44,395 bases of DNA, taken from contig JAWVCV010000110.1 of NCBI GenBank assembly GCA_033858115.1, positions 1-44,395 on the forward strand, in the 5' to 3' direction. Positions 2,995 to 43,784 of the stretch are shown piece after piece. This DNA comes from Gaiellaceae bacterium. Its GTDB lineage: Bacteria > Actinomycetota > Thermoleophilia > Gaiellales > Gaiellaceae. The notes beneath the pieces are model-generated. The model saw only the letters and a list, made by a program, of their open reading frames with translations, did not search any database and was not told the origin of the DNA. The number at the start of each line of letters is the position of its first letter. The first letter of the stretch is position 1. A program made the translations under genes and the position numbers.

Positions 2995-3789
2995 CTACTC
3001 CGAGCCCCCACGGCGGCCCGGCCGGACGAGCCCTTCGCGGCCGTTCGTCGGTGCGGCGGCCTCGGGCCGCTCCCGGCCCGCGGCGTCCGGCGACCACGGC
3101 GGCGAGGTGACGCCCAGGCGGATCACGAGGTAAAGATGCAGCCCGATCAGGGCGAAGATCGCGCCGGGGATCGCGAGCATGTGCAAGGCGTAGAACTTGC
3201 TCAGCGTGTCGGCGCCGATCTCGGTGCCGCCCGCTAAGAACTGGGCGAGGAAGGGGCCGATGATGGGCGCGGTGCCGTTGAGGTTGATCCCGACGACGGT
3301 GGCCCAGTAGGCAGTCTGGTCCCACGGCAGCAGGTAGCCCGTGAAGCCCTCGAGCATGCCCATGGCGAGCAGCAGCACGCCGATGATCCAGTTCAGCTCG
3401 CGCGGGTACTTGTAGGCGCCGAAAAGGAACACGCGGGCCATGTGGAAGAACATCAGGATGATGAAGACGCTCGCGCCCCAGCGGTGCATGCCGCGCACGA
3501 GCCAGCCCAGCGTCAGGTCGTTCGTGATGTGCTGGATCGACTCGTAGGCCGAGTTCGGGTCGGGCTTGTAGTACATCGCGAGGATCACGCCCGTGATCGC
3601 CTGGACGAGGAAGGCGGTCAGCGTCGCGGAGCCGAGCGTGTGGAACCAGCCCGTGTCGCGCGGGACCTTGCGGAAGAGGAAGTACTTGACCCCGCCGACG
3701 AGCCCCGAGCGCTCCTCGAGCCACTCGAGCGGGTAGAGCGCGGCAGCCTCGAGCTGCGCGCGCCGGGCTGACTTCGCCTGCGGGCTCAC
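2995..3789 (-). CDS. qcrB: Cytochrome b6-type subunit (QcrB)
   Basis: This is the tail of listed ORF 2995..4026. The in-frame GTG at 3789 overlaps the Rieske stop as GTGA. His pairs are in GMHRWGASVFIILMFFHM and FYALHMLAIPGAIFALIGLHLY, and PWDQ is present. Confidence 0.9.
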   Translation of the reverse strand: MSPQAKSARRAQLEAAALYPLEWLEERSGLVGGVKYFLFRKVPRDTGWFHTLGSATLTAFLVQAITGVILAMYYKPDPNSAYESIQHITNDLTLGWLVRGMHRWGASVFIILMFFHMARVFLFGAYKYPRELNWIIGVLLLAMGMLEGFTGYLLPWDQTAYWATVVGINLNGTAPIIGPFLAQFLAGGTEIGADTLSKFYALHMLAIPGAIFALIGLHLYLVIRLGVTSPPWSPDAAGRERPEAAAPTNGREGLVRPGRRGGSE

Positions 3790-16973: not shown

Positions 16974-17270
16974 ATGATGAACGACGATCGGCCCTTGCTC
17001 GTGTTCTTCTGGTCCGAGCGATCCGGCCCGGCCCGGCGCATGGAGAGCCTGCTGGCCCATCTCGAGCGCAAGGAGCGCGATCGTCTCCGAGTTCGGCGCG
17101 TGGACGTGGATGCGAACCCGGAGATCGCGGAGCGCTTCAAGGTCGACCTCGTCCCCACCCTGATCCTGGTCAAGGACAAGCGGGCCGTCTCCCGGCTCGA
17201 CGGCCGCACCAGCGCGCCGCGGATCGAGGCGATGCTCGAGCCGCACCTGCCGCAGCCGATCGCCGCCTAG
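16974..17270 (+). CDS. Thioredoxin-fold protein with a degenerate (Cys-less) active site
   Basis: This is the tail of listed ORF 16386..17270. ATG 16974 lies 5 nt after AGGAGGAG. FFWSERSGPARR aligns to the FWAxWCGPCK position, and VDVDANPEIAERFKVDLVPTLILV is the typical Trx core. Confidence 0.7.
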   Translation: MMNDDRPLLVFFWSERSGPARRMESLLAHLERKERDRLRVRRVDVDANPEIAERFKVDLVPTLILVKDKRAVSRLDGRTSAPRIEAMLEPHLPQPIAA

Positions 17271-18373
17271 GTCTCGAGCCGGCGGATGACGTCGAGCGTG
17301 AACGCCGCCGCCCGGGCGCCGTCGACGACTCGATGGTCGAACGTGACGGACACGTTGCCGAGCTGACGCACGGCCAGCTCGCCGTCGACGACAGCGGGCC
17401 GCGGCGCGATCCGGTGGATGCCGAGGATGGCCACCTCGGGGTGGTTGACGAGCGGCGTCACGAGCAGCCCGCCGAGCTTGCCCGCGCTCGTGATCGTGAA
17501 CGTGCCGCCGCGGAGCTCCTCGGGCTTCAACGTCCCGCCTCGTGCGGCTTCGGCGAGCCGCGAGACCTCGGCCGCCAGCTCCTGCAACGAGGCCGTGCCG
17601 CAGCCGCGGACGACCGGGACGACGAGCCCTTGGTCGGTCTGCACGGCGACGCCGATGTCGAACCGGTCGAGATAGACGATTTCGTCGCCTTCCAGCCGCG
17701 CGTTCAGCTCCGGGTACTCCTCGAGCGCCGCTGCCGTGGCCTTGAGCGCGAGCGGCAGCAGCTGCTTGACGTCGACGCCCGTGAAGTCGCACTCCTCGAC
17801 GAACGTGACCGCAGGCACCTCGCGGTGGGCGCGCGTCAGGTGCTCGACGATCTGCCGGCGCACCCCGCGCACCGGCTCCCGCCGCTCGCCGACGGGCTTG
17901 TGTTGTTTCAACACAAGCCCTTCTCCGGCGGCGTTCCGGACGTCCTCCTCGGTGATGCGTCCGTTCGGCCCCGTGCCGCTCAGGGAGCCGAGATCCACGC
18001 CGAGCTCCTGCGCGATCCGCCGCACGATCGGTGTCGCCTGCACACGAGCTTGTGTTGATTCAACACTTGCCCTCGGCGCCGGTCGCGGTGCCGACGCGGC
18101 GGCAGTCGGGGGCTGCTCTAGGGCCGCGGTGTCGGTCTCGACGCCGATTACGACGAGGACGGTGCCGACCGGCACGACCTCGCCCTCGGCGACGAGAATC
18201 CTCGCGACGGTGCCGGCCGCCGGAGACGGAATCTCGACCGTCGTCTTGTCGGTCTGGATCTCGACGAGCGGATCGTCCTCGGCGAGCTCCTGCCCCTCGG
18301 TCACGAGCCAGCGCGCGACCTCGCCCTCGGTCAGCCCCTCGCCCAGGTCGGGCAGCTTGAACTCGTACGCCAT
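17267..18373 (-). CDS. Dihydrolipoamide acyltransferase (E2) of a 2-oxoacid (branched-chain type) dehydrogenase complex
   Basis: The lipoyl domain has EIQTDKTTVEIPSP. The subunit-binding domain is TPIVRRIAQELGVDLGSLSGTGPNGRITEEDV. The catalytic motif is DHRVVDG. Confidence 0.9.
   Translation of the reverse strand: MAYEFKLPDLGEGLTEGEVARWLVTEGQELAEDDPLVEIQTDKTTVEIPSPAAGTVARILVAEGEVVPVGTVLVVIGVETDTAALEQPPTAAASAPRPAPRASVESTQARVQATPIVRRIAQELGVDLGSLSGTGPNGRITEEDVRNAAGEGLVLKQHKPVGERREPVRGVRRQIVEHLTRAHREVPAVTFVEECDFTGVDVKQLLPLALKATAAALEEYPELNARLEGDEIVYLDRFDIGVAVQTDQGLVVPVVRGCGTASLQELAAEVSRLAEAARGGTLKPEELRGGTFTITSAGKLGGLLVTPLVNHPEVAILGIHRIAPRPAVVDGELAVRQLGNVSVTFDHRVVDGARAAAFTLDVIRRLET
17894..17920. 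repeat. 27-bp AT-rich perfect palindrome inside the E2 gene (copy 1)
   Basis: GGGCTTGTGTTG-TTT-CAACACAAGCCC has 12-bp perfect arms. It is 23/27 identical to the copy at 18046-18072. Confidence 0.85.
18046..18072. repeat. 27-bp AT-rich near-palindrome inside the E2 gene (copy 2)
   Basis: GAGCTTGTGTTGATTCAACACTTGCCC has the core palindrome GTGTTGA-T-TCAACAC. It lies 152 bp from copy 1 (not a multiple of 3), so it is read in a different frame. Confidence 0.85.
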
Positions 18374-18385
18374 CGGCGCGTGAGC

Positions 18386-18772
18386 CTACCGCGGTGTCCC
18401 GAGCCAGGCGTCGGCAGGGACGATCAGCACCCGCAGCCCGCCCTCGACGCGCCACAGCGAGACGGCCTGCTCGTCGCCGGCGAGCTCGGGAGCCACCGCA
18501 GCCGGCACATAGCCGACCTGGAGCGTCCGCTCCCCGTTCCAGATCGCCACCGCGTTCGGGTCGTGCTCGTTGGCGGGCTCCGGCACGAGCGCGAGTCGCC
18601 GCCCCGGGTCGAACGAGGGATCCGGCAGCGCCTCGGCCCGGTAGGAGACGCCGGCCGCGGGGACGACGCGGATCCGCGGATCCTCCCAACGCACGGCCGC
18701 GCCCGTCTCTGCATCGCGCAGGTAGAAGCCTGCCTCGCCGCGCTCGAGCCAGAGACGCAGCCGTTCGGCCAC
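18386..18772 (-). CDS. Stand-alone HIRAN-domain protein
   Basis: This is the tail of listed ORF 18386..19669. GTG 18772 shares one nucleotide with the upstream TAG. AAGVSYRAEAL...LALVPEPANEHDPNAVAIWNGERTLQVGYVPAAVAPELA matches the HIRAN signature (EPxNxxDxNAV...GYV). Confidence 0.72.
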   Translation of the reverse strand: MAERLRLWLERGEAGFYLRDAETGAAVRWEDPRIRVVPAAGVSYRAEALPDPSFDPGRRLALVPEPANEHDPNAVAIWNGERTLQVGYVPAAVAPELAGDEQAVSLWRVEGGLRVLIVPADAWLGTPR

Positions 18773-19626
18773 TAGAACGCGTCGTCGCGCAGGACCGCGT
18801 GCACGCCGAGCACCTCGTTGACCACCTGCGTCACCCGGAGGTCGACGACCACGGAGGCGAGCCCGAGCGCATCGGAGCGCTCGACGCCGCGCTCGCGCTC
18901 CATCAGCTCGAGCATGCCGTCGACGGCGATGCGGGCGGCGAGGCCCAGGTGCTCGTCGAAGCCGAACGTGAGCCAGGCGCCCTCGATGCGAGCGACCGGC
19001 CACTCGAGCGAGAGGTCGTCGCGCAGCTCGATCGTGAGCTGCGCCTCGACCGGGCTTTCGATCGCCGTGCCGGAGACCTCGCCGTCCCCCTGCGCCGCAT
19101 GGCCGTCCCCCGCCGAGAGGAGCGCGCCGTCGACCGGGATCGGGAGGAAGAGCGTCGTGCCGGCGACGAGCTCCTTGCAGTCGATGTTGCCGCCCCACCG
19201 CCGCGGCGGGATCGTCGAGTGCACGCCCGGTTCGGGCGGCGGCATCCCGATCACGCCGAGAAACGGCGCCAGCCGAACCCGCCGGTCCCCGTAGCGACCG
19301 AAGCCCTCCGCGAGCTCCCAGTCGATCCGGTGCGGCGGCTCCGAGCGCGTCATGCCCCACGAGCCGGGCACGACCTCGTCGACCGTGACCGCGAGCGTCT
19401 GCCCCGCCCGAGCCCCGCGCACCGCGATCGGGCCTGCGAGCGGGTGGCCGGTGTCGAGCAGGGGATCGCGCGACTCCACCGGCTCGTCGCGATCGCGCTC
19501 CCAGCCCGCGTTCGGCACCGAGATTCTCACCGAATCCCCCGGATCGACGACCAGGACCGGATCGAGGTCGCGGGAGAAGTAGCCGCGCAGGTAGGCGGGG
19601 TCGAGCGGCAGCTCGTGGAGCGCCAC
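18772..19626 (-). CDS. Acetamidase/formamidase-family amidohydrolase
   Basis: This is the tail of listed ORF 18772..20328. GTG 19626 shares one nucleotide with the upstream TAG. GHPLAGPIAVRGARAGQTLAVTVDEV, GGNIDCKEL and GDGHAAQGDGEVSGTAIE are typical of FmdA/AmdA. Confidence 0.78.
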   Translation of the reverse strand: MALHELPLDPAYLRGYFSRDLDPVLVVDPGDSVRISVPNAGWERDRDEPVESRDPLLDTGHPLAGPIAVRGARAGQTLAVTVDEVVPGSWGMTRSEPPHRIDWELAEGFGRYGDRRVRLAPFLGVIGMPPPEPGVHSTIPPRRWGGNIDCKELVAGTTLFLPIPVDGALLSAGDGHAAQGDGEVSGTAIESPVEAQLTIELRDDLSLEWPVARIEGAWLTFGFDEHLGLAARIAVDGMLELMERERGVERSDALGLASVVVDLRVTQVVNEVLGVHAVLRDDAF

Positions 19627-20594
19627 TAGAAGGCGAGCACCCGCCGTGCGGCATCGACGACCCGGGCAACCGACGGCATGTACGCGTCCTCGATCTGCCA
19701 GTAGGGATACGGGACGTCGTAGCCAGTCACGCGTACGACCGGTGCCTGCAGGTCGAGCAGTGCCTTCTCGGCGAGGATCGCGGCAAGCTCGGCCGCGAAG
19801 CCACACGTCCGCGGTGCTTCCTGCACGAGCACGACGCGGCCGGTCTTGCCCGCAGAAGCGAGCAAGGCGTCCTCGTCGAGCGGCTTCAGCGAGCGGAGGT
19901 CGAGCACCTCGACGGACGCGTCGATCTCGTCGGCCGCGCGCTCGCACAACGGCACCATCGCCCCGTAGGCGACGAGCGTCAGATCGGTTCCCTCGCGAGC
20001 GAGGCGAGCCTTGCCGAGCGGGACGACGTGCTCCCCCTCCGGCACCTCGCCGCGCTCGGTGCGGTAGACGAGCTTCGGCTCGAAGATCACGACCGGGTCG
20101 GGATCGCGGATCGCCGCTGCCAGCAGGCCCTTCGCGTCCGCGGGCGTGGACGGGATCGCGACCTTGATCCCGGGCGTGTGGACGTAGTACGTCTCGGGCG
20201 AGTCGTCGTGCAGCTCGGGCGCGCGCACGCCGCCGCCGTAGGGCATCCGGATCGTGATCGGGAAGGCCATCTTGCCGCCGGTGCGCCAGCGGTAGCGGCC
20301 GACGTGCGTGATCAGCTGGTCGAGGCACGGGTAGGAGAACGCGTCGTACTGCATCTCGCAGACCGGCCGGAACCCGGCCATGCAGAGGCCCACGGCCGAG
20401 CCGAGGATGCCCGCCTCGGCGAGCGGCATGTCGACGCAGCGGTCGGGGCCGAAGCGGTCCCTCAGCCCCGCGGTCGCGCGGAAGACGCCGCCGGCGCGGC
20501 CGACGTCCTCGCCCATGACGAGCACGTCGGCGTCGCGCTCCATCTCGACGTGCAGCGCGTCGTTCACGGCCTCGACGAGGAACCGCTCAGCCAG
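19626..20594 (-). CDS. 2-oxoacid dehydrogenase E1 component beta subunit
   Basis: This is the tail of listed ORF 19626..21116. (L)AERFLVEAVNDALHVEMERDADVLVMGEDVG is the family N-terminus. CTG 20594 is preceded by GGAGGA with a 6-nt spacer and overlaps the E1-alpha stop (CTGGCTGA). The next canonical start is a GTG 8 codons downstream. Confidence 0.88.
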   Translation of the reverse strand: MAERFLVEAVNDALHVEMERDADVLVMGEDVGRAGGVFRATAGLRDRFGPDRCVDMPLAEAGILGSAVGLCMAGFRPVCEMQYDAFSYPCLDQLITHVGRYRWRTGGKMAFPITIRMPYGGGVRAPELHDDSPETYYVHTPGIKVAIPSTPADAKGLLAAAIRDPDPVVIFEPKLVYRTERGEVPEGEHVVPLGKARLAREGTDLTLVAYGAMVPLCERAADEIDASVEVLDLRSLKPLDEDALLASAGKTGRVVLVQEAPRTCGFAAELAAILAEKALLDLQAPVVRVTGYDVPYPYWQIEDAYMPSVARVVDAARRVLAF

Positions 20595-21654
20595 CGAGGA
20601 TCCTCCGCAGCTCCGCGAGGTCGTGCTCGAACGAGGCAGGCGGGTCGGCGAACGCGTGCTCGAACAGCAGCCCGACGTCGGCAGGGGGCTCGGCCTCTGC
20701 GGCCGCGATCGCCGTGCGCATCGCGTCCGCGGCCTCGCGCTTGATCCGCTCGGCCTGGTCGTCGTCGAGCAGGCCGAGCCGCCGCAGGTAGCGCTCGTAG
20801 CGCCCGACGCACTCGTTCGCGCGCTCCTCTTCGACCCGGTCGTGATCGATGTACGCGCTCGGATCGTCGGCGGTCGCGTGCGGCGCGGGCCGGTAGGTGA
20901 CCGCCTCGATGAAGCTCGGGCCCTCCCCGGCGCGCGCCCGGGCGACCGCCTCGCGTGTCGCCTCGTAGACCGCGAGCACGTCGCCGCCGTCGACGCGCAC
21001 TCCCGGAATCCCGTAGCCGGCCGCCTTGTCGACGAGCGCCGCGGCGCGCGTCTGAGCCGCGAGCGGCGTCGAGATCGCCCACTGGTTGTTGTTGCAGAGC
21101 AGGACGAGCGGGGCACGCATGACCGCGGCGATGTTGGCGCCCTCGTGGAACGCCCCCTCCGACGTCGCGCCGTCGCCGAAGAAGGTCAGCGCGCACCCGG
21201 GCTCCCCGCGCAGGCGCTTCCCCCATGCGAGCCCGGCCGCGTGCGGGACCTGCGTCGCAATCGGGACGGAGATCGAGGCGACGTTGTAGTCGGCCGGGTT
21301 CCACCAGCCGGCCGGATGGCCGCGCCACCACGAGAGCACCGTCGAGGCCGGCATGCCGCGGAGGAGGCCGATTGCCGACTCGCGATAGCTCGGGAAGATC
21401 CAGTCCTCGTCGTCGAGCGCATGGAAGGCGCCGACCTGCATCGCCTCGTGGCCCCAGAAGATCGCATAGGTGCCGATGCGCCCCTGCCGGTGGTAGATGA
21501 CGGAGCGCTCGTCGTAGGTACGCAGCAGCACCATCGAGCGGTAGAAGGCGAGCAGCTCCTGCTCGCCGACGCCTACGAGCTCGCCGTCGGGAACGGTCTC
21601 GCCGTCGCCGATCACGCGGCGGAGATCGCGCTCGGCGGGAATGGTGCTCGCCAT
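20587..21654 (-). CDS. 2-oxoacid dehydrogenase E1 component alpha subunit (TPP dependent)
   Basis: 355-aa ORF with FPSYRE, the TPP motif FFGDGATSEGAFHEGANIAAV and LLCNNNQWAIS. Confidence 0.9.
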   Translation of the reverse strand: MASTIPAERDLRRVIGDGETVPDGELVGVGEQELLAFYRSMVLLRTYDERSVIYHRQGRIGTYAIFWGHEAMQVGAFHALDDEDWIFPSYRESAIGLLRGMPASTVLSWWRGHPAGWWNPADYNVASISVPIATQVPHAAGLAWGKRLRGEPGCALTFFGDGATSEGAFHEGANIAAVMRAPLVLLCNNNQWAISTPLAAQTRAAALVDKAAGYGIPGVRVDGGDVLAVYEATREAVARARAGEGPSFIEAVTYRPAPHATADDPSAYIDHDRVEEERANECVGRYERYLRRLGLLDDDQAERIKREAADAMRTAIAAAEAEPPADVGLLFEHAFADPPASFEHDLAELRRILAG

Positions 21655-24274: not shown

Positions 24275-24856
24275 TCAACGACCGCCGTAGCCGCGGATGC
24301 CTTCGACGAGAATCCCGGCGAACGCGTCGGCCACGTCGTCCGTGTCGCGGCCCGGCGTCAGCCAGGTGTACGCCCAGTTCGCGGCCGAGAGGACGAGCAG
24401 CGCGGCGGCCGCGTCGTCGAGGTCGGTGCGGAGCTCTCCGTGCTCCCGTCCCTCACGGAAGAGCGCGCGCAACCGCTCCTCGTAGCGGCGGCGCTCGGAG
24501 ACGATCTCCTCGCGGCGGGGGCCTTCGAGGTAGCGCCACTCGCGGATGAAGACGGTGGCCGTGTCGAGCTGCTCGGCGACCAGCCTCAGATGCGCCCGTA
24601 GCGCCAGCCGGATCCGCTCCGAGGCGCCGAGGTGCTCCGGGATCGCGTCGAGACCGGCGTGGAAGGCGGTGGCGCCGTCGCGCATGGTCTCGTAGAGCAG
24701 CTCCTGCTTCGACTCGGTCAGCGAGTAGAGCGAGCCCTTCTGGACACCCATCGCCGCCGCGAGGTCGCCCATCGACGTGCCGTGGTAGCCCTTCTGCGCG
24801 AAGAGACGGGCGGCCTGTCGGGTGAGCTCTTTCCGGCGAGTGGGGATAGACTCCAT
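24275..24856 (-). CDS. TetR-family transcriptional regulator, probable PaaR-type repressor of the divergent paa genes
   Basis: It has the TetR HTH region LFAQKGYHGTSMGDLAAAMGVQKGSLY and is divergent from paaA, only 31 bp away. Confidence 0.85.
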   Translation of the reverse strand: MESIPTRRKELTRQAARLFAQKGYHGTSMGDLAAAMGVQKGSLYSLTESKQELLYETMRDGATAFHAGLDAIPEHLGASERIRLALRAHLRLVAEQLDTATVFIREWRYLEGPRREEIVSERRRYEERLRALFREGREHGELRTDLDDAAAALLVLSAANWAYTWLTPGRDTDDVADAFAGILVEGIRGYGGR

Positions 24857-24857
24857 G

Positions 24858-24871
24858 CTAACGAACGTTCG
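24858..24871. promoter_or_regulatory. Candidate PaaR operator in the tetR/paaA divergent region
   Basis: CTAACGAACGTTCG contains the perfect 10-bp palindrome CGAACGTTCG. It fits the AACG-NN-CGTT arrangement I recall for Thermus PaaR operators (CNAACGNNCGTTNG). Confidence 0.5.
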
Positions 24872-24887
24872 GCAGGGAGGCGGAACC

Positions 24888-25787
24888 TTGGAAGCGCGTG
24901 AGCAGGAGTTTCTCGACTACGTCCGGACCGGCGGGCTCGTCGAGACGGACGACTGGATGCCGGACGAGTACCGACGCCGGCTGATCAAGTTCATCGAGAT
25001 GCACGGCAATTCGGAGCTGATGGGCGTGCTCCCGGAGCGCGACTGGATCCTCCGGGCGCCCACGTTGCAGCGGAAGCTCGCCCTCACGGCGAAGATCCAG
25101 GACGAGGTCGGCCACTGCCAGCTGATCTACCGGGTCGTCGAGGATCTCGGCAAGCCGCGCACGGCCTGCCTGGACGACCTGATCGGCGGCAAGTCGAAGT
25201 TCCACAACGTCTTCCACTACCCGACGAAGAGCTGGGGCGACGTCGGCGTGATCGCCTGGCTCGTCGATGCGGCCGCGATCATCAGCCAGAAGGCGCTGCT
25301 CAAATGCTCGTACGCGCCCTACGCGCGCGTGATGAAGAAGGTCTGCTGGGAGGAGTCGTTCCACATCCTCCACGGCCGCGACACCGTGCTCGCGATGGTC
25401 ACCGGGACGCCGGAGCAGTTCGAGCTCGTGCAGGAGGCGCTCAACCGCTGGTGGGAGCCGCTGATGCACTTCCACGGCACGCCGCTGCCCGCCGAGGACG
25501 ACCCGATGGTGATCTGGCGGATCAAGAGCCAGGCGAACGAGGCCGCGCGGCAGCAGTTCCTCGAGGGGTACGTGCCGCAGATCCTCGAGCTCGGGCTCGA
25601 GCTCCCCGACCCGAAGCTGCGGCGTAACGACGCAGGCGTCTGGGAGTACACGGAGCCCGACTGGGACCGGCTGCTCGAGGTCGTCACCGGCCACGGGCCG
25701 GCGTCGCAGGAGCGGCTCGAGTTCCGCCGACTCTCGCGCGCCGAGACCGACTGGGTCTCGCAGGTCGTGCTGGCGGAGGCGGCTTGA
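24888..25787 (+). CDS. paaA: 1,2-phenylacetyl-CoA epoxidase subunit A
   Basis: This is the tail of listed ORF 24822..25787. TTG 24888 lies 7 nt after GGGAGG. It has the di-iron motifs HGNSELMG and QDEVGHCQ plus EESFHILHG. Confidence 0.92.
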   Translation: MEAREQEFLDYVRTGGLVETDDWMPDEYRRRLIKFIEMHGNSELMGVLPERDWILRAPTLQRKLALTAKIQDEVGHCQLIYRVVEDLGKPRTACLDDLIGGKSKFHNVFHYPTKSWGDVGVIAWLVDAAAIISQKALLKCSYAPYARVMKKVCWEESFHILHGRDTVLAMVTGTPEQFELVQEALNRWWEPLMHFHGTPLPAEDDPMVIWRIKSQANEAARQQFLEGYVPQILELGLELPDPKLRRNDAGVWEYTEPDWDRLLEVVTGHGPASQERLEFRRLSRAETDWVSQVVLAEAA

Positions 25788-26062
25788 TCTACGAGGTCTT
25801 CAGGCAGGAGCGGAAAGGTCAGCCGTTCGTCCACGGCGGCTCCTTCCATGCGCCCGACCGTGCCTTCGCGGACGCCTACGCGCGCGAGTTCTACGCGCGC
25901 CGCGGCGAGTCGGTCGCGCTCTGGGTCGTGCCGCGGGAGGAGATCGTGGAGATCGACGAGTTCCCGGACGAGTTTGATCTCAAGTACCGCCGCGTGGACG
26001 GCTACTCGATCAAGGCGAGGCTGAAGGAGGCACGTGCCCGAGCGGGTACAACTGCTGCTTGA
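25784..26062 (+). CDS. paaB: 1,2-phenylacetyl-CoA epoxidase subunit B
   Basis: 92-aa ORF starting MIYEVFRQERKGQPFVHGGSFHAPD, which is typical PaaB. The TTG start forms a TTGA overlap with the paaA stop. Confidence 0.9.
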   Translation: MIYEVFRQERKGQPFVHGGSFHAPDRAFADAYAREFYARRGESVALWVVPREEIVEIDEFPDEFDLKYRRVDGYSIKARLKEARARAGTTAA

Positions 26063-26678
26063 GCTCGCCGACGATGAGCTGATCCTCGGCTGGCGCAACT
26101 CCGAGTGGACGGGGATCGCGCCCTTTCTCGAGGAGGACGTCGCCTTCTCCTCGATCGCCCAGAACGAGATCGGCCACGCGCGCGCGCTCTACGAGCTGGC
26201 AGCGCGCGACCTCGGCACAGACGCCGACGCCCTCGCGTTCGACCGCAAGCCCAAGGAGTACCGCTGCGCGCCGCTGATCCAGCTCCGCCTCGTGCCGGAC
26301 TGGGCGCGGACGATCGCGCGCCACGTCCTCTACGAGACGGCCGACGCGATCCGGATCGCGCGGCTGAAAGAGCACGAGGATCCGGAGCTCGCCGGGATCG
26401 CGGCGAAGATCGAGCGCGAGGAGGTCTACCACCGGCTGCACGCGGAGATGTGGCTCGAGCGGCTGGGCCGGGAGCAGCGCTATCGCGAGGCAGTGGACGA
26501 GCTCTGGCCGTACGCGCTCGGCCTGCTCGAGCCGGAGCTGCGGCCCGTGCTGGCGGACCGGGTCGGTCGCCCCGACGTCGAGGCGGTCGAGCGCAGCGCG
26601 CCCGGCGAGGAGTTCGCCGAGCTCTGGAACGAGATGACGATGGTGCGCCGCTCGGCGCCAGTGGGCGCGCAATGGTGA
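26034..26678 (+). CDS. paaC: 1,2-phenylacetyl-CoA epoxidase subunit C
   Basis: 214-aa ORF with LLLELADDELILGWRNSEWTGIAPFLEEDVAFSSIAQNEIGHARALY. Confidence 0.85.
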   Translation: MPERVQLLLELADDELILGWRNSEWTGIAPFLEEDVAFSSIAQNEIGHARALYELAARDLGTDADALAFDRKPKEYRCAPLIQLRLVPDWARTIARHVLYETADAIRIARLKEHEDPELAGIAAKIEREEVYHRLHAEMWLERLGREQRYREAVDELWPYALGLLEPELRPVLADRVGRPDVEAVERSAPGEEFAELWNEMTMVRRSAPVGAQW

Positions 26679-27157
26679 CCGAGGCGGCGGTGTGGGACGC
26701 GCTGGCCGAGATCCCGGACCCGGAGATTCCCGTGATCTCGCTCGTCGACCTCGGCGTCGTCAAGGACGTCGCGGTCGACGGCGACCGGGTGCGGATCGGG
26801 TTCACGCCCACGTTCATGGGCTGCCCGGCGCTCGAGGTGATGCAGCGGCAGATGGAGGAGGCGGTGACCGCGCTCGGCGGCGAGCCGCAGGTGGACGTCC
26901 TCCTCGACGACTCCTGGTCGACCGACAAGATCACGCCAGCCGGCCGCGAGAAGCTCCGCGACGCGGGCCTCGCGCCGCCGGCGCCGCGCGAGCGGGCGGC
27001 GCCGACGCTGCTCCAGCTCCAGCGGGCCGTCCACCGCTGCCCCTACTGCAGCTCGACGGCGACGCGGCTCGACAACATCTTCGGCCCCACCCCGTGCCGG
27101 TCAGTGCGCTACTGCGAGAGCTGCAGGCAGCCGTTCGAGCAGTTCAAGACGATCTAG
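26672..27157 (+). CDS. paaD: 1,2-phenylacetyl-CoA epoxidase subunit D (SUF-like domain plus C-terminal Cys cluster)
   Basis: This is the tail of listed ORF 26105..27157. ATG 26672 overlaps the paaC stop (ATGGTGA). The sequence is VWDALAEIPDPEIPVISLVDLGVV...TPTFMGCPA...CPYCSS...CESCRQPFEQFK. Confidence 0.88.
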   Translation: MVTEAAVWDALAEIPDPEIPVISLVDLGVVKDVAVDGDRVRIGFTPTFMGCPALEVMQRQMEEAVTALGGEPQVDVLLDDSWSTDKITPAGREKLRDAGLAPPAPRERAAPTLLQLQRAVHRCPYCSSTATRLDNIFGPTPCRSVRYCESCRQPFEQFKTI

Positions 27158-38826: not shown

Positions 38827-41193
38827 GTGGACCAGAACGCCCTCATCGCGCTCGAGTACCCCGCGATCGCCGAGCGGCTGGCGCGTGCCGCGGCGACCGA
38901 GCACGGCGTGGAGCTCGCGCGCTCGCTTGCGCCGTCTCCCGATCCGGAAGAGGTGGCGTACCGCCAGGAGCTGACGGCGGAGGCGATCGGACTGCTCGAC
39001 ACCGCCGAGGAGCCTCCGCTCGACGGCATCCACGACATCCGCGAGGCGACAGCCCAAGCGGCGCGCGGCGGCGCGCTCCCGGCCGGCGCGCTGCGGGCCG
39101 TCGCCGACACCGTCGGCGGCGCGGTGCGGGCGCGCGCGGCACTCGACGGCCACGAAGGCGCGGCGCAGCTCCGCGGGCTCGCCGCGGGGATCGACCTGAG
39201 CCTCGCGCCGCTCGTGAAGTCGATCGACCGCGCGGTCGAGCCGGACGGCTCGGATCTGAAGGACAACGCCTCGCCCCGGCTCCGCAAGCTGCGGGTCGAG
39301 CTCCGCACCGGCCGACAGCGCGTGGCCGAGAAGCTCGAGCAGCTGGTGCGCAAGACGGGCGTTCGCGAGCACCTGCAGGAGGACTTCGTCACCCAGAGAG
39401 CCGGGCGGCCGGTGCTCGCGGTCAAGGCGAGCTCGCGGAGCAGCGTGCCGGGGATCGTCCACGACTCCTCCGACTCCGGCCAGACCCTTTTCGTGGAGCC
39501 GTTCGACGTGGTCGACCTCAACAACCGGCAGTCGGAAGCCGCGGGGGCCGAGCGCGAGGAGGTCGAGCGGATCCTGCGCGAGCTCTCGGCCGCTGTCGGC
39601 GAGCGCGCCGGAGCGCTCGACGCACTCGTGGCCGCAACCGCCCAGATCGACCTGGCCCTTGCGCGCGGCATCGTCTCGCGCGGCTGGCGCGGAGCGCCGG
39701 TACAGGTCTCGGACGAGGTCCGGCTGGTTGCAGCGAGGCATCCTCTGCTCGACGCGGGTACGGCGGTCCCCATCGACCTGGAGCTCGGCGACCTGCGCGC
39801 CCTCGTGATCAGCGGGCCCAACACCGGCGGCAAGACCGTGGCCCTGAAGACGCTCGGCCTGGCCGCTCTGCTCCACCAGTCCGGATTGCGGCCGCCGGCG
39901 GAGACTGCCGCGCTGCCCATTTTCGACGAGGTGCTCGCCGACATCGGCGACGCGCAGTCGATCGAGATGAGCCTGTCGACCTTCTCCGGGCACATCGCCA
40001 ACCTCGTCGCGATCCTGGGGGCGGCACGCGAGCGCTCGCTCGTCCTCGTCGACGAGCTGGCGTCCGGAACAGATCCCGTCGAGGGTTCGGCGCTGGCGCA
40101 GGCGCTGCTGGCGAGGCTCGCGGAGCAGGCGCGACTCACAGTCGTGACGACGCACTACCCCGAGTTGAAGGAGTGGGCGAGCGCGACCGCGGGCGTCGCC
40201 AATGCCGCGACCGGATTCGACCCGGACACGCACGCGGCGCTCTACCGGATCGCTCTGGGGCGACCGGGCACGTCGCACGCGCTGCAGGTCGCGGAGCGGC
40301 TCGGCCTCGACGCCGCTGTGGTCGCGGACGCGCGCGGCCGCGTGGCGCCGGAGCGCCTGCAGATCGAGGAGCTCCTGGCGGAAGCGCAGGCGGCCGAGCG
40401 GACGGCGGCCGCGGAGCGCGAGGAGGCGATCCGCGAGCGCGAGGATGCGGCGGAGCTCGCCGAAGCCGGGCGCGGCCGCAAGGCCGAGCTGGAGGCGGAG
40501 ATCGGCGCCGTCCGCGAGTCGGCGGCGGCCGAGCGCGAGCGGGCGGCCGCAGAGGCCCGCCGTGACCTCGCTTCAGCTCGCGAGGAGCTGGCCGCCCTCC
40601 GCCAGGAGATCCGAATCGCCAGGCGCAGGGATCGAGAGGCGAGCCGCGCAGCCCCCGCTGCCGCCCGCGAGCGCGACCGCCGGCTGGGCGCGGCATCCGA
40701 GCGCGCAGCGCGCGTCGAGAGTGCGATCGGCGCACTCGACGAGCCGCTGCCGGTGACGGGCCCGCTCGCGGCAGGGGATCCGGTCGAAGCCCCTTCGCTC
40801 GGAGTGCACGGCACGATCGCGGCGATCGAGGGCGACGAGGCCGAGGTGGTCGGCCCGGCCGGCCACCGGTTGCGCGTCCCGCTCGCGCGCCTTCAACCCT
40901 CGGCGCGACGCGAACAGGAGCCGGAGGCGCCCGTCACCGTTGTCGCGGCCGCACGCGGCGACGTCAGCGACGAGCTCGACGTGCGCGGGCAGCGCGCGCA
41001 GGAGGCGCGGGAGGCGGTTCGCGCCTTCGTCGACGACGCCGCGCTGGCAGGCCTCACGACTGTTCGCGTCGTCCACGGCCGCGGCACCGGCGCGGTGCGC
41101 GCCGCGGTCCGCGACGAGCTCGTGTCGCACCCGCTGGTCGGCAGCCATGAGAGCGACTCCGCCGACGGCGCCACCCTCGTGCAGCTCGGCTAG
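38827..41193 (+). CDS. mutS2: MutS2 family protein (MutS ATPase plus C-terminal Smr nuclease domain)
   Basis: 788-aa ORF with the Walker A motif GPNTGGKTVALKT and DELASGTDP, a long Ala/Glu/Arg coiled-coil, and a C-terminal Smr domain LDVRGQRAQEA...VRVVHGRGTGAVR. Confidence 0.92.
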   Translation: MDQNALIALEYPAIAERLARAAATEHGVELARSLAPSPDPEEVAYRQELTAEAIGLLDTAEEPPLDGIHDIREATAQAARGGALPAGALRAVADTVGGAVRARAALDGHEGAAQLRGLAAGIDLSLAPLVKSIDRAVEPDGSDLKDNASPRLRKLRVELRTGRQRVAEKLEQLVRKTGVREHLQEDFVTQRAGRPVLAVKASSRSSVPGIVHDSSDSGQTLFVEPFDVVDLNNRQSEAAGAEREEVERILRELSAAVGERAGALDALVAATAQIDLALARGIVSRGWRGAPVQVSDEVRLVAARHPLLDAGTAVPIDLELGDLRALVISGPNTGGKTVALKTLGLAALLHQSGLRPPAETAALPIFDEVLADIGDAQSIEMSLSTFSGHIANLVAILGAARERSLVLVDELASGTDPVEGSALAQALLARLAEQARLTVVTTHYPELKEWASATAGVANAATGFDPDTHAALYRIALGRPGTSHALQVAERLGLDAAVVADARGRVAPERLQIEELLAEAQAAERTAAAEREEAIREREDAAELAEAGRGRKAELEAEIGAVRESAAAERERAAAEARRDLASAREELAALRQEIRIARRRDREASRAAPAAARERDRRLGAASERAARVESAIGALDEPLPVTGPLAAGDPVEAPSLGVHGTIAAIEGDEAEVVGPAGHRLRVPLARLQPSARREQEPEAPVTVVAAARGDVSDELDVRGQRAQEAREAVRAFVDDAALAGLTTVRVVHGRGTGAVRAAVRDELVSHPLVGSHESDSADGATLVQLG

Positions 41194-41819
41194 AGCGTCT
41201 CCTCGACGACCTTCGCGGCGTAAAGCTGGTATGGCAGCGCCTCGAGCACGCGCAGACGCGGCTCGGGGACGTCGAAGAACCGCTCGAGCGCAAGCGGCTC
41301 CAGCCAGCCGAGATCGGCGCGCGACGCCAGCGTCCGCGAGACGGCGGAGCGGTCGCCGCCGAGCGCGACGTGCGCGACGCGGTGGCGCCAGGGGCCGAGC
41401 ACGCGCGCCGCCTCCCCAGCGGCCGCGTCGATGAGCTCACGCTCCTGCTCGGTGCGGCGGCGGCGGAAGCGGTTCGCCGACGAGCCGCCCTTCTTGTGGC
41501 GACCCTTGACGAAGCGGGAGCCGACCTTCGACGCGACGAGCCGCTCGCCCTCGAAGACGCCCACCGCGAATCCGCCCAGCCGCACGAGCACGACGGCGAC
41601 GATCGGCTCGGCTGCCAGGGCGTCGAGCAGCGGCCCGGCGCGCACCACCTCGTATGCGCCGACGTGGTCGAGACCGAACGGAGGGGTGATCGTGAGAGCA
41701 CTCTCGTCGAGCTCGATGCGGGCACTGCCGTCCCGATAGCTGACACGCCCGGTCGCGCCCTCGAGCGCCTGCAGCCGCTTTGCGAGGTTGGCGCGGCCGA
41801 TATAGCGGGTGTCGCTCAC
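41190..41819 (-). CDS. acVLRF1-like (Vms1/ANKZF1-related, eRF1-fold) putative peptidyl-tRNA hydrolase
   Basis: 209-aa ORF. VVLVRLGGFAVGVFEGERLVASKVGSRFVKGRHKKGGSSANRFRRRR matches my recollection of the actinobacterial VLRF1 core (beta-strands followed by a basic GG-S-x-x-RF-RRR loop). The family call was not verified by search. Confidence 0.55.
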   Translation of the reverse strand: MSDTRYIGRANLAKRLQALEGATGRVSYRDGSARIELDESALTITPPFGLDHVGAYEVVRAGPLLDALAAEPIVAVVLVRLGGFAVGVFEGERLVASKVGSRFVKGRHKKGGSSANRFRRRRTEQERELIDAAAGEAARVLGPWRHRVAHVALGGDRSAVSRTLASRADLGWLEPLALERFFDVPEPRLRVLEALPYQLYAAKVVEETL

Positions 41820-41857: not shown

Positions 41858-42301
41858 ATGGCGACTGCCCCGACCAGGCTCGGCGGGTTCGCGCTCGTGC
41901 TGCTCGCGCTCCTCGCCGGGTGCGGCGGCGGCAACTCCCGGGAGAACTTCGTCACCGACGCACTGGCCATCTGCGGAAAGGCCAACGAGCGCGTGCGGGC
42001 TCTGGGCACACCCGAGTCGTTCACCCAGACGCAGCTCTACGCCCGCCAGGCGAAGGATGCGGTTGGCGACGAGCTCGACGACCTGCGCGACCTGACCCCG
42101 CCGCCCGAATTCGAGGACGCCTTCGCCGCGTATCTGCAGACGCTCGAGCGGCGGCACACCCAGCTCGGCCTCCTCGCAGGGGCAGCCGACAACACCGACA
42201 TCAACGCCGTCCGTGAGGTCGGCAGCGAGCTGAGCGTGCTGACGGCGAAGGCGCGAACGCAGGCCCGGCGAGCCGGCATCGAAGAGTGTGAGCCCCGCTA
42301 G
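41858..42301 (+). CDS. Lipoprotein, hypothetical (paralog 1, 147 aa)
   Basis: This is the tail of listed ORF 41780..42301, starting at ATG 41858. It has the lipobox LLAGC and conserved Cys residues in AICGKANERVRALG and the C-terminal GIEECEPR. Confidence 0.65.
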   Translation: MATAPTRLGGFALVLLALLAGCGGGNSRENFVTDALAICGKANERVRALGTPESFTQTQLYARQAKDAVGDELDDLRDLTPPPEFEDAFAAYLQTLERRHTQLGLLAGAADNTDINAVREVGSELSVLTAKARTQARRAGIEECEPR

Positions 42302-42310
42302 GCTGCGCGC

Positions 42311-42526
42311 ATGGCCGTCGAGATCCACTACTGCCCGGTCTGAGCGGGCTACGACGAACGAGCCGCGAGTCTCGCGGCCACGCTGAACGGTCAGGGCATC
42401 CCCGCGTCGATCATCGCAGGAAAGACCAAGCAGTTCGACGTGCTCGCGGACGGCAAGCTTGTCTTTTCGAAGGAGCGCGAGGGACGCTTTCCCGACGAGC
42501 CCGAGATCGTCGCACTGCTTGGCTGA
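42311..42526 (+). CDS. Rdx/SelW-like thiol-oxidoreductase-fold protein with in-frame TGA (candidate selenocysteine, CxxU)
   Basis: Not in the ORF track. ATG is at 42311, TGA at 42341-42343 (codon 11) and the stop at 42524-42526. Read-through gives MAVEIHYCPV-U-AGYDERAASLAATLNGQGIPASIIAGKTKQFDVLADGKLVFSKEREGRFPDEPEIVALLG. The Rdx family pattern is (V/I)EIxYCxxC/U...RAxxL...DG.L(V/I)(F/W)SK...GRFP. Confidence 0.6.
42362..42378 (+). promoter_or_regulatory. Candidate bacterial SECIS-like hairpin downstream of the in-frame TGA
   Basis: GCCGCG-AGUCU-CGCGGC is a 6-7 bp GC stem with a GU-containing apical loop. It starts 18 nt after the TGA. Confidence 0.4.
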
Positions 42527-42566: not shown

Positions 42567-43010
42567 GTGCGCCGCCTCGCCCTGCTCCTGTTGCTCGCGT
42601 TCGCGGCCGCCTGCGGCGGGAGCGACGACACGCCGGGGCCGCTCTCCCGCTCGGAGTACACGAGGCTCGCCAATGCCAGCTGTGTCGCGGCGGAGCGCAA
42701 GTTGGACGCCCTCGGCGACTTCGCGAACTTCAACGAGCTCTCGCAGGAGATGAAGGTCGGGCACGATGCGCTCAAGCAGTCCGCGGACGAGCTGCGCACG
42801 CTCCTGCCCCCCGCCAAGCTCGTGGGTCGCCACGCCGAGCTCGTCCGTCTCACGGATGAGACGGCCGACGCGGCAACGCGGATCTCGGCCGCGGCCGCCG
42901 ACAACGACCAGGTCGAGATGCAGAAGCAGGCCGAGCGCGCGGAGACGCTGACTCAGGCCGCCAACGACGTCTCGCGGAAGCTCGGCCTTCAGGAGTGCGT
43001 CGCGGGTTAG
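42567..43010 (+). CDS. Lipoprotein, hypothetical (paralog 2, 147 aa)
   Basis: This is the tail of listed ORF 42459..43010, starting at GTG 42567. It has a lipobox-like FAAAC (signal peptide LALLLLLAFAAAC) and conserved Cys residues in ASCVAAERKLDALG and the C-terminal GLQECVAG. It has the same length and layout as 41858..42301. Confidence 0.65.
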   Translation: MRRLALLLLLAFAAACGGSDDTPGPLSRSEYTRLANASCVAAERKLDALGDFANFNELSQEMKVGHDALKQSADELRTLLPPAKLVGRHAELVRLTDETADAATRISAAAADNDQVEMQKQAERAETLTQAANDVSRKLGLQECVAG

Positions 43011-43013
43011 GGC

Positions 43014-43784
43014 CTAGACGCCGCGGAAGCTCGGCGGCCGCTTCTCCAGAAACGCTGTCACGCCCTCGGTGAAGTCGGCCGTCTGGGTCGCCGCTTGCTG
43101 CAGCGCCGCCTCGAGCTCGAGCTGCTCCTCGAGCGACGCGGTGTAGGCGTGCTCGAAGAGCTGCTTCGTCATCCCGATCGCACGGGTCGGCAGCGCTGCG
43201 TAGTCCTGCCCGAGCTCCGCCGCCCGAGCAGGAAGCCCAGCTCCTTCCACGACCTCCGAGACGAGTCCCCAGGCGTGAGCTTCTGCGGCGGTGAGCCTCC
43301 GGTTCGAGGTCATCCACTCGAACGCCCGCGCGAAGCCGAGCAGCCGGTGGATGAACCAGGAGCCGCCGGAGTCGGGGACGAGGCCGATGCCGATGAAGCC
43401 CGGGACGAACGTGGCGGCGTCCGCCGCGATCCTGAGGTCGCACGCGGCCGCGAGGGACAGGCCCGCGCCAGCGCAGGGCCCGTTCACCGCTGCGATCACG
43501 GGCTTCTCGAGCGCGCGGATCAGGCGGATGTTCGGGTGATAGGTCTCCTCCAGACGCTCCCGAATCGAGCCCGCGACCTCCTGGAACTCCTTCAGGTCCT
43601 GACCGGCGCAAAAGCCGCGACCCGCGCCGGTGATCACGACGGCGCGAACGTCCGGAGCAGCCGCCTCCTCGAGCGCCGCGTGCAGACGGGCGTGCAGCGC
43701 GGCGTTGAAGGCGTTGAAGACCTCTGGACGGTTGAGCGTGATCGTCATCACCGCGCCCTCGCGCGACGTCAGCACCTCGCTCAT
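43014..43784 (-). CDS. Enoyl-CoA hydratase/isomerase (crotonase) family, PaaG-like
   Basis: 256-aa ORF with ITLNRPEVFNAF, ITGAGRGFCAGQDL, AAVNGPCAGAGLSLAAACD and a C-terminal DFTEGVTAFLEKRPPSF. Confidence 0.88.
   Translation of the reverse strand: MSEVLTSREGAVMTITLNRPEVFNAFNAALHARLHAALEEAAAPDVRAVVITGAGRGFCAGQDLKEFQEVAGSIRERLEETYHPNIRLIRALEKPVIAAVNGPCAGAGLSLAAACDLRIAADAATFVPGFIGIGLVPDSGGSWFIHRLLGFARAFEWMTSNRRLTAAEAHAWGLVSEVVEGAGLPARAAELGQDYAALPTRAIGMTKQLFEHAYTASLEEQLELEAALQQAATQTADFTEGVTAFLEKRPPSFRGV

Follow-up and report, generated by a model that had tools for sequence, protein, structure and literature searches.

An in-frame UGA codon and a conserved SECIS-like hairpin in a predicted SelW-like selenoprotein gene of Gaiellaceae bacteria

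A TGA triplet that lies early in an otherwise uninterrupted reading frame can mark the end of a very short peptide, reflect damage to a gene, or serve as a codon that is decoded by the ribosome. This choice is posed by positions 42311-42526 on the forward strand of a contig from a Gaiellaceae bacterium, whose entire 44,395-nucleotide stretch was analysed and is referred to here as the window. The first-pass annotation of this DNA had pointed out that the frame is absent from the ORF track, that it carries a TGA at 42341-42343, and that read-through yields a recognizable peptide. All of these coordinates and the translation were reproduced. The ATG at 42311-42313 is the sole start codon between an in-frame TAG located upstream (42299-42301) and the TGA. 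Translation of 42311-42526 with read-through produces MAVEIHYCPV[U]AGYDERAASLAATLNGQGIPASIIAGKTKQFDVLADGKLVFSKEREGRFPDEPEIVALLG, a product of 71 codons in which the single internal in-frame TGA is codon 11, and a terminal TGA at 42524-42526 is read as the stop. The list of ORFs is empty for this frame, and the only entry across the region is a spurious ORF of 32 amino acids in a different frame. Codon usage is of the coding type on both sides of the internal TGA, as judged by a model trained on the confident genes of the window, and this is the sole TGA in the window for which this is so. A scan for further TGA codons with two-sided coding potential, covering the window and all related loci, recovered only this gene and junctions between genes that share a frame.

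The protein encoded on both sides of the TGA belongs to the Rdx (SelW/SelT/SelH) family and has a thioredoxin fold. When cysteine is substituted at the TGA, the product matches the Pfam Rdx profile PF10262 with 42.1 bits against a cut-off of 22.6 (E = 1e-10), such that protein residues 3-69 align with profile positions 2-71 of 74, and it matches the NCBIfam profile TIGR02174 (CXXU_selWTH) with 37.5 bits against a cut-off of 34.2. Rdx-like sequence around the TGA had been recognized in the first-pass annotation, which had also argued that such resemblance is not accidental, and profile scores in excess of both curated cut-offs bear out these two statements. The NCBIfam equivalog NF041051 (SelTWH_Campy) yields 53.3 bits, which is under its cut-off of 88 bits. 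By this score, the SelW-like protein is related to the NF041051 group but does not belong to it as an orthologue.

The position of the TGA within this family is also informative. The motif Cys-Pro-Val-Sec (CxxU, 42332-42343) follows a tyrosine, and alignment with MIEN1 (2LJK, E = 2e-4) places the C-E-P-C of that protein on C8 through U11. The TGA corresponds to the second cysteine of the MIEN1 CxxC motif, in agreement with the earlier proposal that it occupies the place of the second redox residue. A structural model was built with 23 homologues for the orthologue P0002, which is 62% identical to the window protein, and it was obtained with a pLDDT of 93.3 and a pTM of 0.81. The modelled topology is thioredoxin-like, with the order beta1-alpha1-beta2-beta3-beta4-alpha2 (E2-7, H14-28, E32-37, E43-47, E50-54 and H64-70). 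In this model of the orthologue, the CPVx loop resides between strand beta1 (residues 2-7) and helix alpha1 (residues 14-28), which is the basis for placing the CxxU motif of the window protein at this junction. The best 23 PDB matches of the model, found using Foldseek, are SelW-related Rdx proteins, including 2FA8 (TM-score 0.85), 2P0G, 2OBK, 3DEX, 2OJL and 2OKA, followed by MIEN1 and mouse SelW (2NPB).

If the TGA is a codon of this gene, it should be evident in related genomes. Orthologues were retrieved by using only peptide motifs from the C-terminal half of the protein (SK[QE]REGRFP and QFDVL..), and therefore the retrieval was blind to the codon present at the selenocysteine (Sec) column. 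From the GTDB representatives, which comprise one genome per species, 80 loci were kept, and these derive from metagenome-assembled genomes (MAGs) classified as Gaiellaceae, Gaiellales, Thermoleophilia or ‘Actinomycetes’. A second set of 80 loci was kept from JGI soil metagenome contigs. TGA occupies the Sec column in every one of the 80 GTDB species genomes (81 of 81 when the window is included), at protein identities of 54-74%. The same is true for all 80 JGI metagenome loci, and for 87 of the 88 loci that lie beyond the GTDB set. Overall, when the window is pooled with the 168 loci that were fetched, the column holds TGA in 168 of 169 sequences and CGA in one; TGC and TGT are found in none, and hence no cysteine form exists among these 169 sequences. 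The surrounding motif is similarly rigid, in that every orthologue except the one with CGA has C-P-[V/T]-TGA, with valine changed to threonine in a few.

The one exception is locus L081 (ENA contig k141_5201, positions 684-686; protein P0001), which encodes arginine with CGA and retains an intact copy of the hairpin described below. The CGA could have arisen recently as an inactivating or escape mutation; alternatively, the assembly of this contig, which is only 1 kb long, could be in error.

Viewed alone, a short ORF that is interrupted by one in-frame stop and is missing from the ORF track might be attributed to a pseudogene, or to an error in sequencing or assembly. However, the same TGA recurs in 167 other independently assembled loci, and purifying selection is apparent on both sides of it. 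These comparative data lead us to reject this explanation, which we consider scarcely conceivable.

The sequence upstream of the TGA is also maintained as protein. Across the eight codons that precede the TGA, amino acids are kept while synonymous sites vary, and the codons for valine and isoleucine vary likewise. For example, the proline codon before the TGA is CCC in 110 sequences, CCG in 23, CCT in five and CCA in one. No frameshifts between the N-terminal and downstream parts were found among the orthologues. The preservation of amino acids despite synonymous variation indicates that the short N-terminal part is translated, and in the same frame as the remainder. Among 150 distinct orthologues, 95 have their first start codon 10-11 codons ahead of the Sec codon. 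The first-pass annotation had anticipated that relatives might lack the N-terminal ten codons, or might carry neither cysteine nor Sec at the critical column, and that either outcome would speak against its proposal. Instead, the orthologues keep these ten codons and, in 168 of 169 sequences, the TGA. Taken with the family assignment, these observations indicate that 42311-42526 is a real and functional gene of 71 codons for a small redox protein of the SelW/Rdx type.

Existing databases depict this gene quite differently. A database search returned 39 homologues, 35 of which are fragments of 43-59 amino acids (most of 48-52) that begin after the TGA, and some of these fragments are labelled ‘predicted Rdx family selenoprotein’ by JGI. 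If the gene callers are right, the true product would be a protein of about 48-52 residues that starts 3ʹ of the TGA, and the ten upstream codons would be an untranslated leader or an independent micro-ORF. The consistent annotation of those 35 entries speaks for this arrangement. However, the Rdx fold of a truncated product would be missing strand beta1 and part of helix alpha1, together with the CxxU motif, and the annotated starts are inconsistent, with M, V or L used at different columns. Moreover, the best internal ORF in the window encodes only 28 amino acids, and the upstream codons, which show the amino acid conservation and synonymous variation described above, never depart from the frame of the downstream part. 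We therefore judge a product that begins after the TGA to be very unlikely indeed.

The four longer homologues in the databases carry tryptophan or arginine at the Sec column. For P0002 and P0005, the underlying DNA reads TGA where the protein entry shows W, and for P0001, from locus L081, the codon is truly CGA. The gene is thus absent, truncated or W-bearing in essentially all annotations, which is a systematic mis-annotation that extends across the clade. These bacteria accordingly offer a clean example of how selenoproteins are systematically mis-annotated in MAGs.

Bacterial selenoprotein mRNAs carry a selenocysteine insertion sequence (SECIS) within the ORF, and the first-pass annotation had proposed such an element at 42362-42378. 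The coordinates of this hairpin, and its start 18 nucleotides 3ʹ of the TGA, were reproduced. The A and U assigned to its loop of five nucleotides form a pair (A42368-U42372), and this yields a putative SECIS upper stem-loop with seven base pairs (GCCGCGA/UCGCGGC) that close an apical G-U-C loop at 42369-42371, beginning 25 nucleotides after the UGA. The predicted folding free energy is -11.4 kcal/mol (z = -3.3 relative to shuffled sequences). The published consensus for bacterial SECIS elements (bSECIS) comprises a loop of 3-9 nucleotides with a G in the first two loop positions, a stem of 4-16 base pairs, a spacing of 16-37 nucleotides and a minimum free energy of -7.5 kcal/mol or lower (PMC13188914). 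All features of the window element lie within these ranges: the loop is 3 (or 5) nucleotides, the stem is 7-8 base pairs, the spacing is 24-25 nucleotides and the free energy is as given above. Likewise, AGUCU fits the loop pattern N1-G-[G|U]-N-N2, wherein N1 and N2 are paired, of the same model (PMC13188914). Thus, in spacing, stem, loop and stability, the element conforms to the consensus employed by bSECISearch.

Agreement with such rules can arise by chance in DNA of this composition. When perfect-stem hairpins located 16-37 nucleotides after each TGA in the window were counted, 18.8% of the 690 TGA trinucleotides (window GC content, 71.8%) were found to precede a hairpin that falls within the bacterial SECIS rules. 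Hairpins at least as stable as that at 42362-42378 follow 4.6% of these trinucleotides, or about one in 20. In a single sequence from a window so rich in GC, the hairpin by itself is weak evidence. Furthermore, when contexts of 45-76 nucleotides are considered, the minimum free energy fold of the window sequence is no better than that of shuffled sequences, and an alternative fold competes with the hairpin. We therefore relied on an alignment in place of single-sequence folding.

An ungapped alignment of 81 sequences, extending from the TGA to position +48, was examined using RNAalifold, and the consensus structure predicted is exactly the hairpin at 42362-42378. In most orthologues an eighth pair (G-C) is present at the positions equivalent to 42361/42379, which in the window are A and C and are unpaired. 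Over the helix of eight pairs, 98.0% of alignment cells are standard pairs, compared with 25-51% in controls with the 3ʹ arm displaced by one to three columns. Changes on both sides are observed for three of the eight pairs, relative to a mean of 0.7 for shuffled alignments, only three of 500 of which reach this number. The covariation score of 0.098 is not reached by any of 500 shuffles (0.079 ± 0.003), and its small absolute size reflects how little the element varies; these counts refer to sequences rather than to independent events. Beyond the eighth pair, no support for a lower helix extending towards the UGA was obtained from RNAalifold, and alignment columns 18 and 41 exhibit no consistent pairing.

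Several orthologues preserve the helix through compensatory changes. A pair formed by two third-codon positions passes from C-G through U•G to U-A among loci L013, L016 and L079, and the same path from C-G to U-A is seen in metagenome loci L084-88, L110, L127 and L130. At another pair, the progression from G-C through G•U to A-U in L029 and L062 involves two changes that each alter an amino acid (Ala to Thr and Ala to Val). Finally, a C-G pair is flipped to G-C in L153.

Codon choice within the hairpin reveals a second sign of constraint. The serine codon at +9 relative to the TGA is AGT in 135 of 137 distinct sequences, although AGT accounts for only 2% of the serine codons in window genes. 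The leucine codon at +10 is CTC in all 139 distinct sequences (57% of leucine codons in window genes), and the alanine codon at +8 is GCG in all 134 (52% of alanine codons in window genes). In contrast, leucine +14, which lies just outside the hairpin, is encoded by six different codons. The AGT of serine +9 provides the G and U of the loop, of which the G is invariant and the U is present in 80 of 81 sequences. The hairpin occupies codons 18-23, within a conserved R-A-A-S-L-A-A segment (codons 17-23) that forms the first half of alpha1. Because the SECIS hairpin lies within the coding sequence of this helix, the stretch is under double constraint. The absence of a conserved SECIS-compatible structure had been named at the outset as a finding that would count against recoding; what emerged is a hairpin that is conserved, constrained at synonymous sites and supported by compensatory changes.

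Some additional features of these sequences were noted. A divergent sub-lineage represented by L021 (positions 3025-3069) and L154 (near position 572) carries a variant SECIS, GCCGUGAGCCUCGCG, together with the helix sequence RAVSLA[KN]. This variant has a GCC loop in which the G is kept, a U•G pair and a shorter stem, and the lower stem is lost. Its sequence could help to define which SECIS features are needed by the SelB protein of this clade. Near the UGA, the valine codon at -1 (42338-42340) is GTC in all 136 distinct sequences, whereas the valine eight codons upstream uses GTC, GTG and GTT. The aspartate codon at +4 (42353-42355), which is outside the hairpin, is GAC in all 139 distinct sequences. 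These invariant codons may reflect a requirement for a particular UGA context during recoding, or merely codon bias. Searches against Rfam with gathering and permissive thresholds gave no match in the window or around the gene, and this database apparently does not include a model for bacterial SECIS elements.

Two UGA codons in one short gene must be interpreted differently. TGA ends 13 of the 24 confident genes in the window and, among 150 distinct orthologues, serves as the final stop in 88, the window gene being one of them. TGA is thus an ordinary stop elsewhere in these genomes, and the decoding of the internal UGA is specific to its position and involves no reassignment of the codon. 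Such reassignment, to tryptophan or glycine, is one form of a reading in which the UGA is read through without Sec; the other is insertion of Trp, Cys or Arg by near-cognate or suppressor tRNAs. The tryptophan shown at this column in database entries P0002, P0003 and P0005 would favour read-through of this kind, as would the CGA codon that accompanies an intact hairpin in L081, and the genes for Sec machinery that were sought in the window and in 845 kb of related loci were not found. However, the W of the two entries checked, P0002 and P0005, is an artefact of translating TGA, and the frequent use of TGA as a terminator argues against reassignment. In addition, Trp, Gly or Arg at the second, catalytic residue of CxxC/CxxU would abolish redox chemistry, and simple leakiness leaves unexplained why a hairpin that matches the SelB-type SECIS consensus is conserved. 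Decoding of this UGA as a residue other than Sec is, in our estimation, very improbable.

The machinery required for Sec incorporation was sought near the gene. Pfam scans of approximately 48 ORFs, ARAGORN and Rfam identified no selA, selB, selD or tRNA-Sec in the 44-kb window, which contains no tRNA genes of any kind according to ARAGORN. No tRNA-Sec was found by ARAGORN in the 845 kb that make up the 168 related loci, and tblastn searches of the same loci with approximate E. coli SelD and SelA queries gave no match. Any Sec machinery of the genome that carries this gene must lie outside the window.

The evidence from sequence comparison leads us to conclude that codon 11 of this SelW-like gene is very probably recoded to selenocysteine, with the aid of a bacterial SECIS located within the ORF. 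The proposal of recoding made in the first-pass annotation is therefore strengthened by three lines of evidence, namely the match to the family HMM, the TGA in 168 of 169 sequences, and the conserved SECIS-like hairpin. We infer from these that the residue inserted is Sec and not another, that insertion depends on SelB, and that the protein functions in redox chemistry. In the mechanism envisioned, the hairpin at 42362-42378 would act as a SECIS during translation, 18 nucleotides 3ʹ of the UGA, by binding SelB, the elongation factor loaded with Sec-tRNA(Sec), and thereby delivering this tRNA to the UGA. No element of this kind accompanies the second UGA, at 42524, which would cause termination. 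The resulting pair of residues, Cys8-x-x-Sec11 at the N-terminus of helix alpha1, could then cycle between selenol/thiol and selenenylsulfide forms, as has been proposed for proteins of the SelW type.

The genomic neighbourhood includes genes of diverse metabolic function. Pfam domains encoded by the window represent a quinone/cytochrome bc cluster, hemL, hemB, a 2-oxoacid dehydrogenase complex and a paa cluster, as well as dinB, ilvD, copCD, proBA, mutS2, an acVLRF1 release-factor-like gene, an enoyl-CoA hydratase and an ArsR regulator. The selenoprotein gene is flanked by genes for two paralogous predicted lipoproteins of 147 amino acids each, at 41858-42301 and 42567-43010, both on the forward strand. 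These lipoproteins are 25% identical to one another (E = 2e-8), have signal peptides that end in A-[GA]-C-G-G and conserved cysteines near both ends, and yield no Pfam match. Apart from the window, this sandwich of lipoprotein genes was observed only for its nearest relatives, L011 and L012. The neighbour proteins of the window gene are 77-89% identical to their counterparts in L012, a similarity that points to a Gaiellaceae source for the window. A convergent gene for an enoyl-CoA hydratase (ECH_1; 43014-43784, reverse strand) lies next to the SelW-like gene, on its downstream side, in 48 of 80 genomes. Within another lineage (L084-L088), the SelW-like gene is positioned approximately 4 kb from a TetR-paaABCD cluster, and the same cluster is present at 24275-27157 in the window. 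These arrangements suggest a loose but conserved association of the gene with metabolism of the phenylacetate or fatty acid type.

Two other arrangements in the window merit description. The genes for MutS2 (MutS_V plus Smr domains; 38827-41193, forward strand) and for a member of acVLRF1/baeRF family 10 (41190-41819, reverse strand) are convergent and overlap by four nucleotides at their 3ʹ ends, and the pair is kept in at least ten related genomes. This neighbourhood is notable in that ribosome rescue has been associated with both the MutS2 and the acVLRF1/baeRF families. The 2-oxoacid dehydrogenase operon (17267-21654, reverse strand; E1 alpha, E1 beta and E2) holds two extra ORFs between E1 beta and E2, one encoding a formamidase/acetamidase-like protein (18772-19626) and the other a small protein with a HIRAN domain (18386-18772).

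Neither the protein family described here, nor the mechanism of recoding, nor the architecture of the SECIS is new. Structurally characterized Rdx proteins such as Atu0228 (2FA8), VcR75 (2P0G), SAV_2001 (3DEX) and PaR82 (2OKA) share the fold, with TM-scores of 0.76-0.85 to the P0002 model, and they carry their redox motif, presumably CxxC rather than CxxU, at the same place. However, they exhibit only 22-28% sequence identity and are 10-30 residues longer. Mammalian SelW (2NPB) and MIEN1/C17orf37 (2LJK) also adopt the Rdx fold, and their CxxU or CxxC motifs fall residue for residue on C8 and U11. The window gene employs a simple hairpin inside its ORF, whereas eukaryotic SelW relies on a SECIS in the 3ʹ-UTR. 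Insertion of Sec in eukaryotes is directed by 3ʹ-UTR SECIS elements that contain a kink-turn, with the participation of SBP2. Compared with other bacterial SECIS elements, including that of E. coli fdhF, the window element conserves only the upper stem-loop and displays no evident bulged U. The apical GGUC loop of fdhF is likewise closed by an A-U pair and presents its G and U to SelB.

Gaiellaceae and allied Thermoleophilia rank with the most abundant Actinomycetota of soil and are mostly uncultured. Bacterial SelW-like selenoproteins have been known since the mid-2000s (Zhang, Romero, Salinas and Gladyshev 2006; PMC1794560), and they constitute a recognized family with few or no cysteine homologues within Sec-using lineages (PMC1794560). 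The window gene resembles its published counterparts in encoding a protein of about 70-90 amino acids with CxxU directly after beta1 and with a SECIS in the ORF just downstream (PMC1794560). Unlike those examples, which derive mainly from Deltaproteobacteria, Clostridia and Symbiobacterium (PMC1794560), its host is a member of the Gaiellaceae/Thermoleophilia, which are high-GC soil Actinomycetota. Our search of the literature on Sec use in Gaiella, Thermoleophilia or Conexibacter returned nothing relevant, and none of these genera is listed in the supplements of the deep-Sep paper. What appears to be unreported in the literature that could be searched is the presence of a Sec-only SelW-like gene, with a near-invariant SECIS, in all 80 species-level genomes retained from Gaiellaceae and allied Thermoleophilia. 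The 168 sequences that carry TGA also provide a high-quality alignment of one SECIS type that can be used for training predictors.

These proteins use Sec exclusively, with no cysteine variants among the 160 orthologues that were retrieved, and this argues for a functional requirement for Sec in the SelW-like protein. A more speculative proposal is that Gaiellaceae/Thermoleophilia represent an unrecognized Sec-using lineage whose members all retain a Sec-only SelW-like protein that perhaps sustains the Sec trait, and we consider this broader view doubtful at present. In other bacteria, FdhA or SelD has been proposed to maintain the Sec-decoding trait (PMC1794560). If the broader view is true, the SelW-like protein, rather than FdhA or SelD, might maintain Sec decoding in these aerobes, by way of a near-invariant SECIS that doubles as the coding sequence for helix alpha1. 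The presence of this gene implies that at least one conserved redox protein of Gaiellaceae requires selenium.
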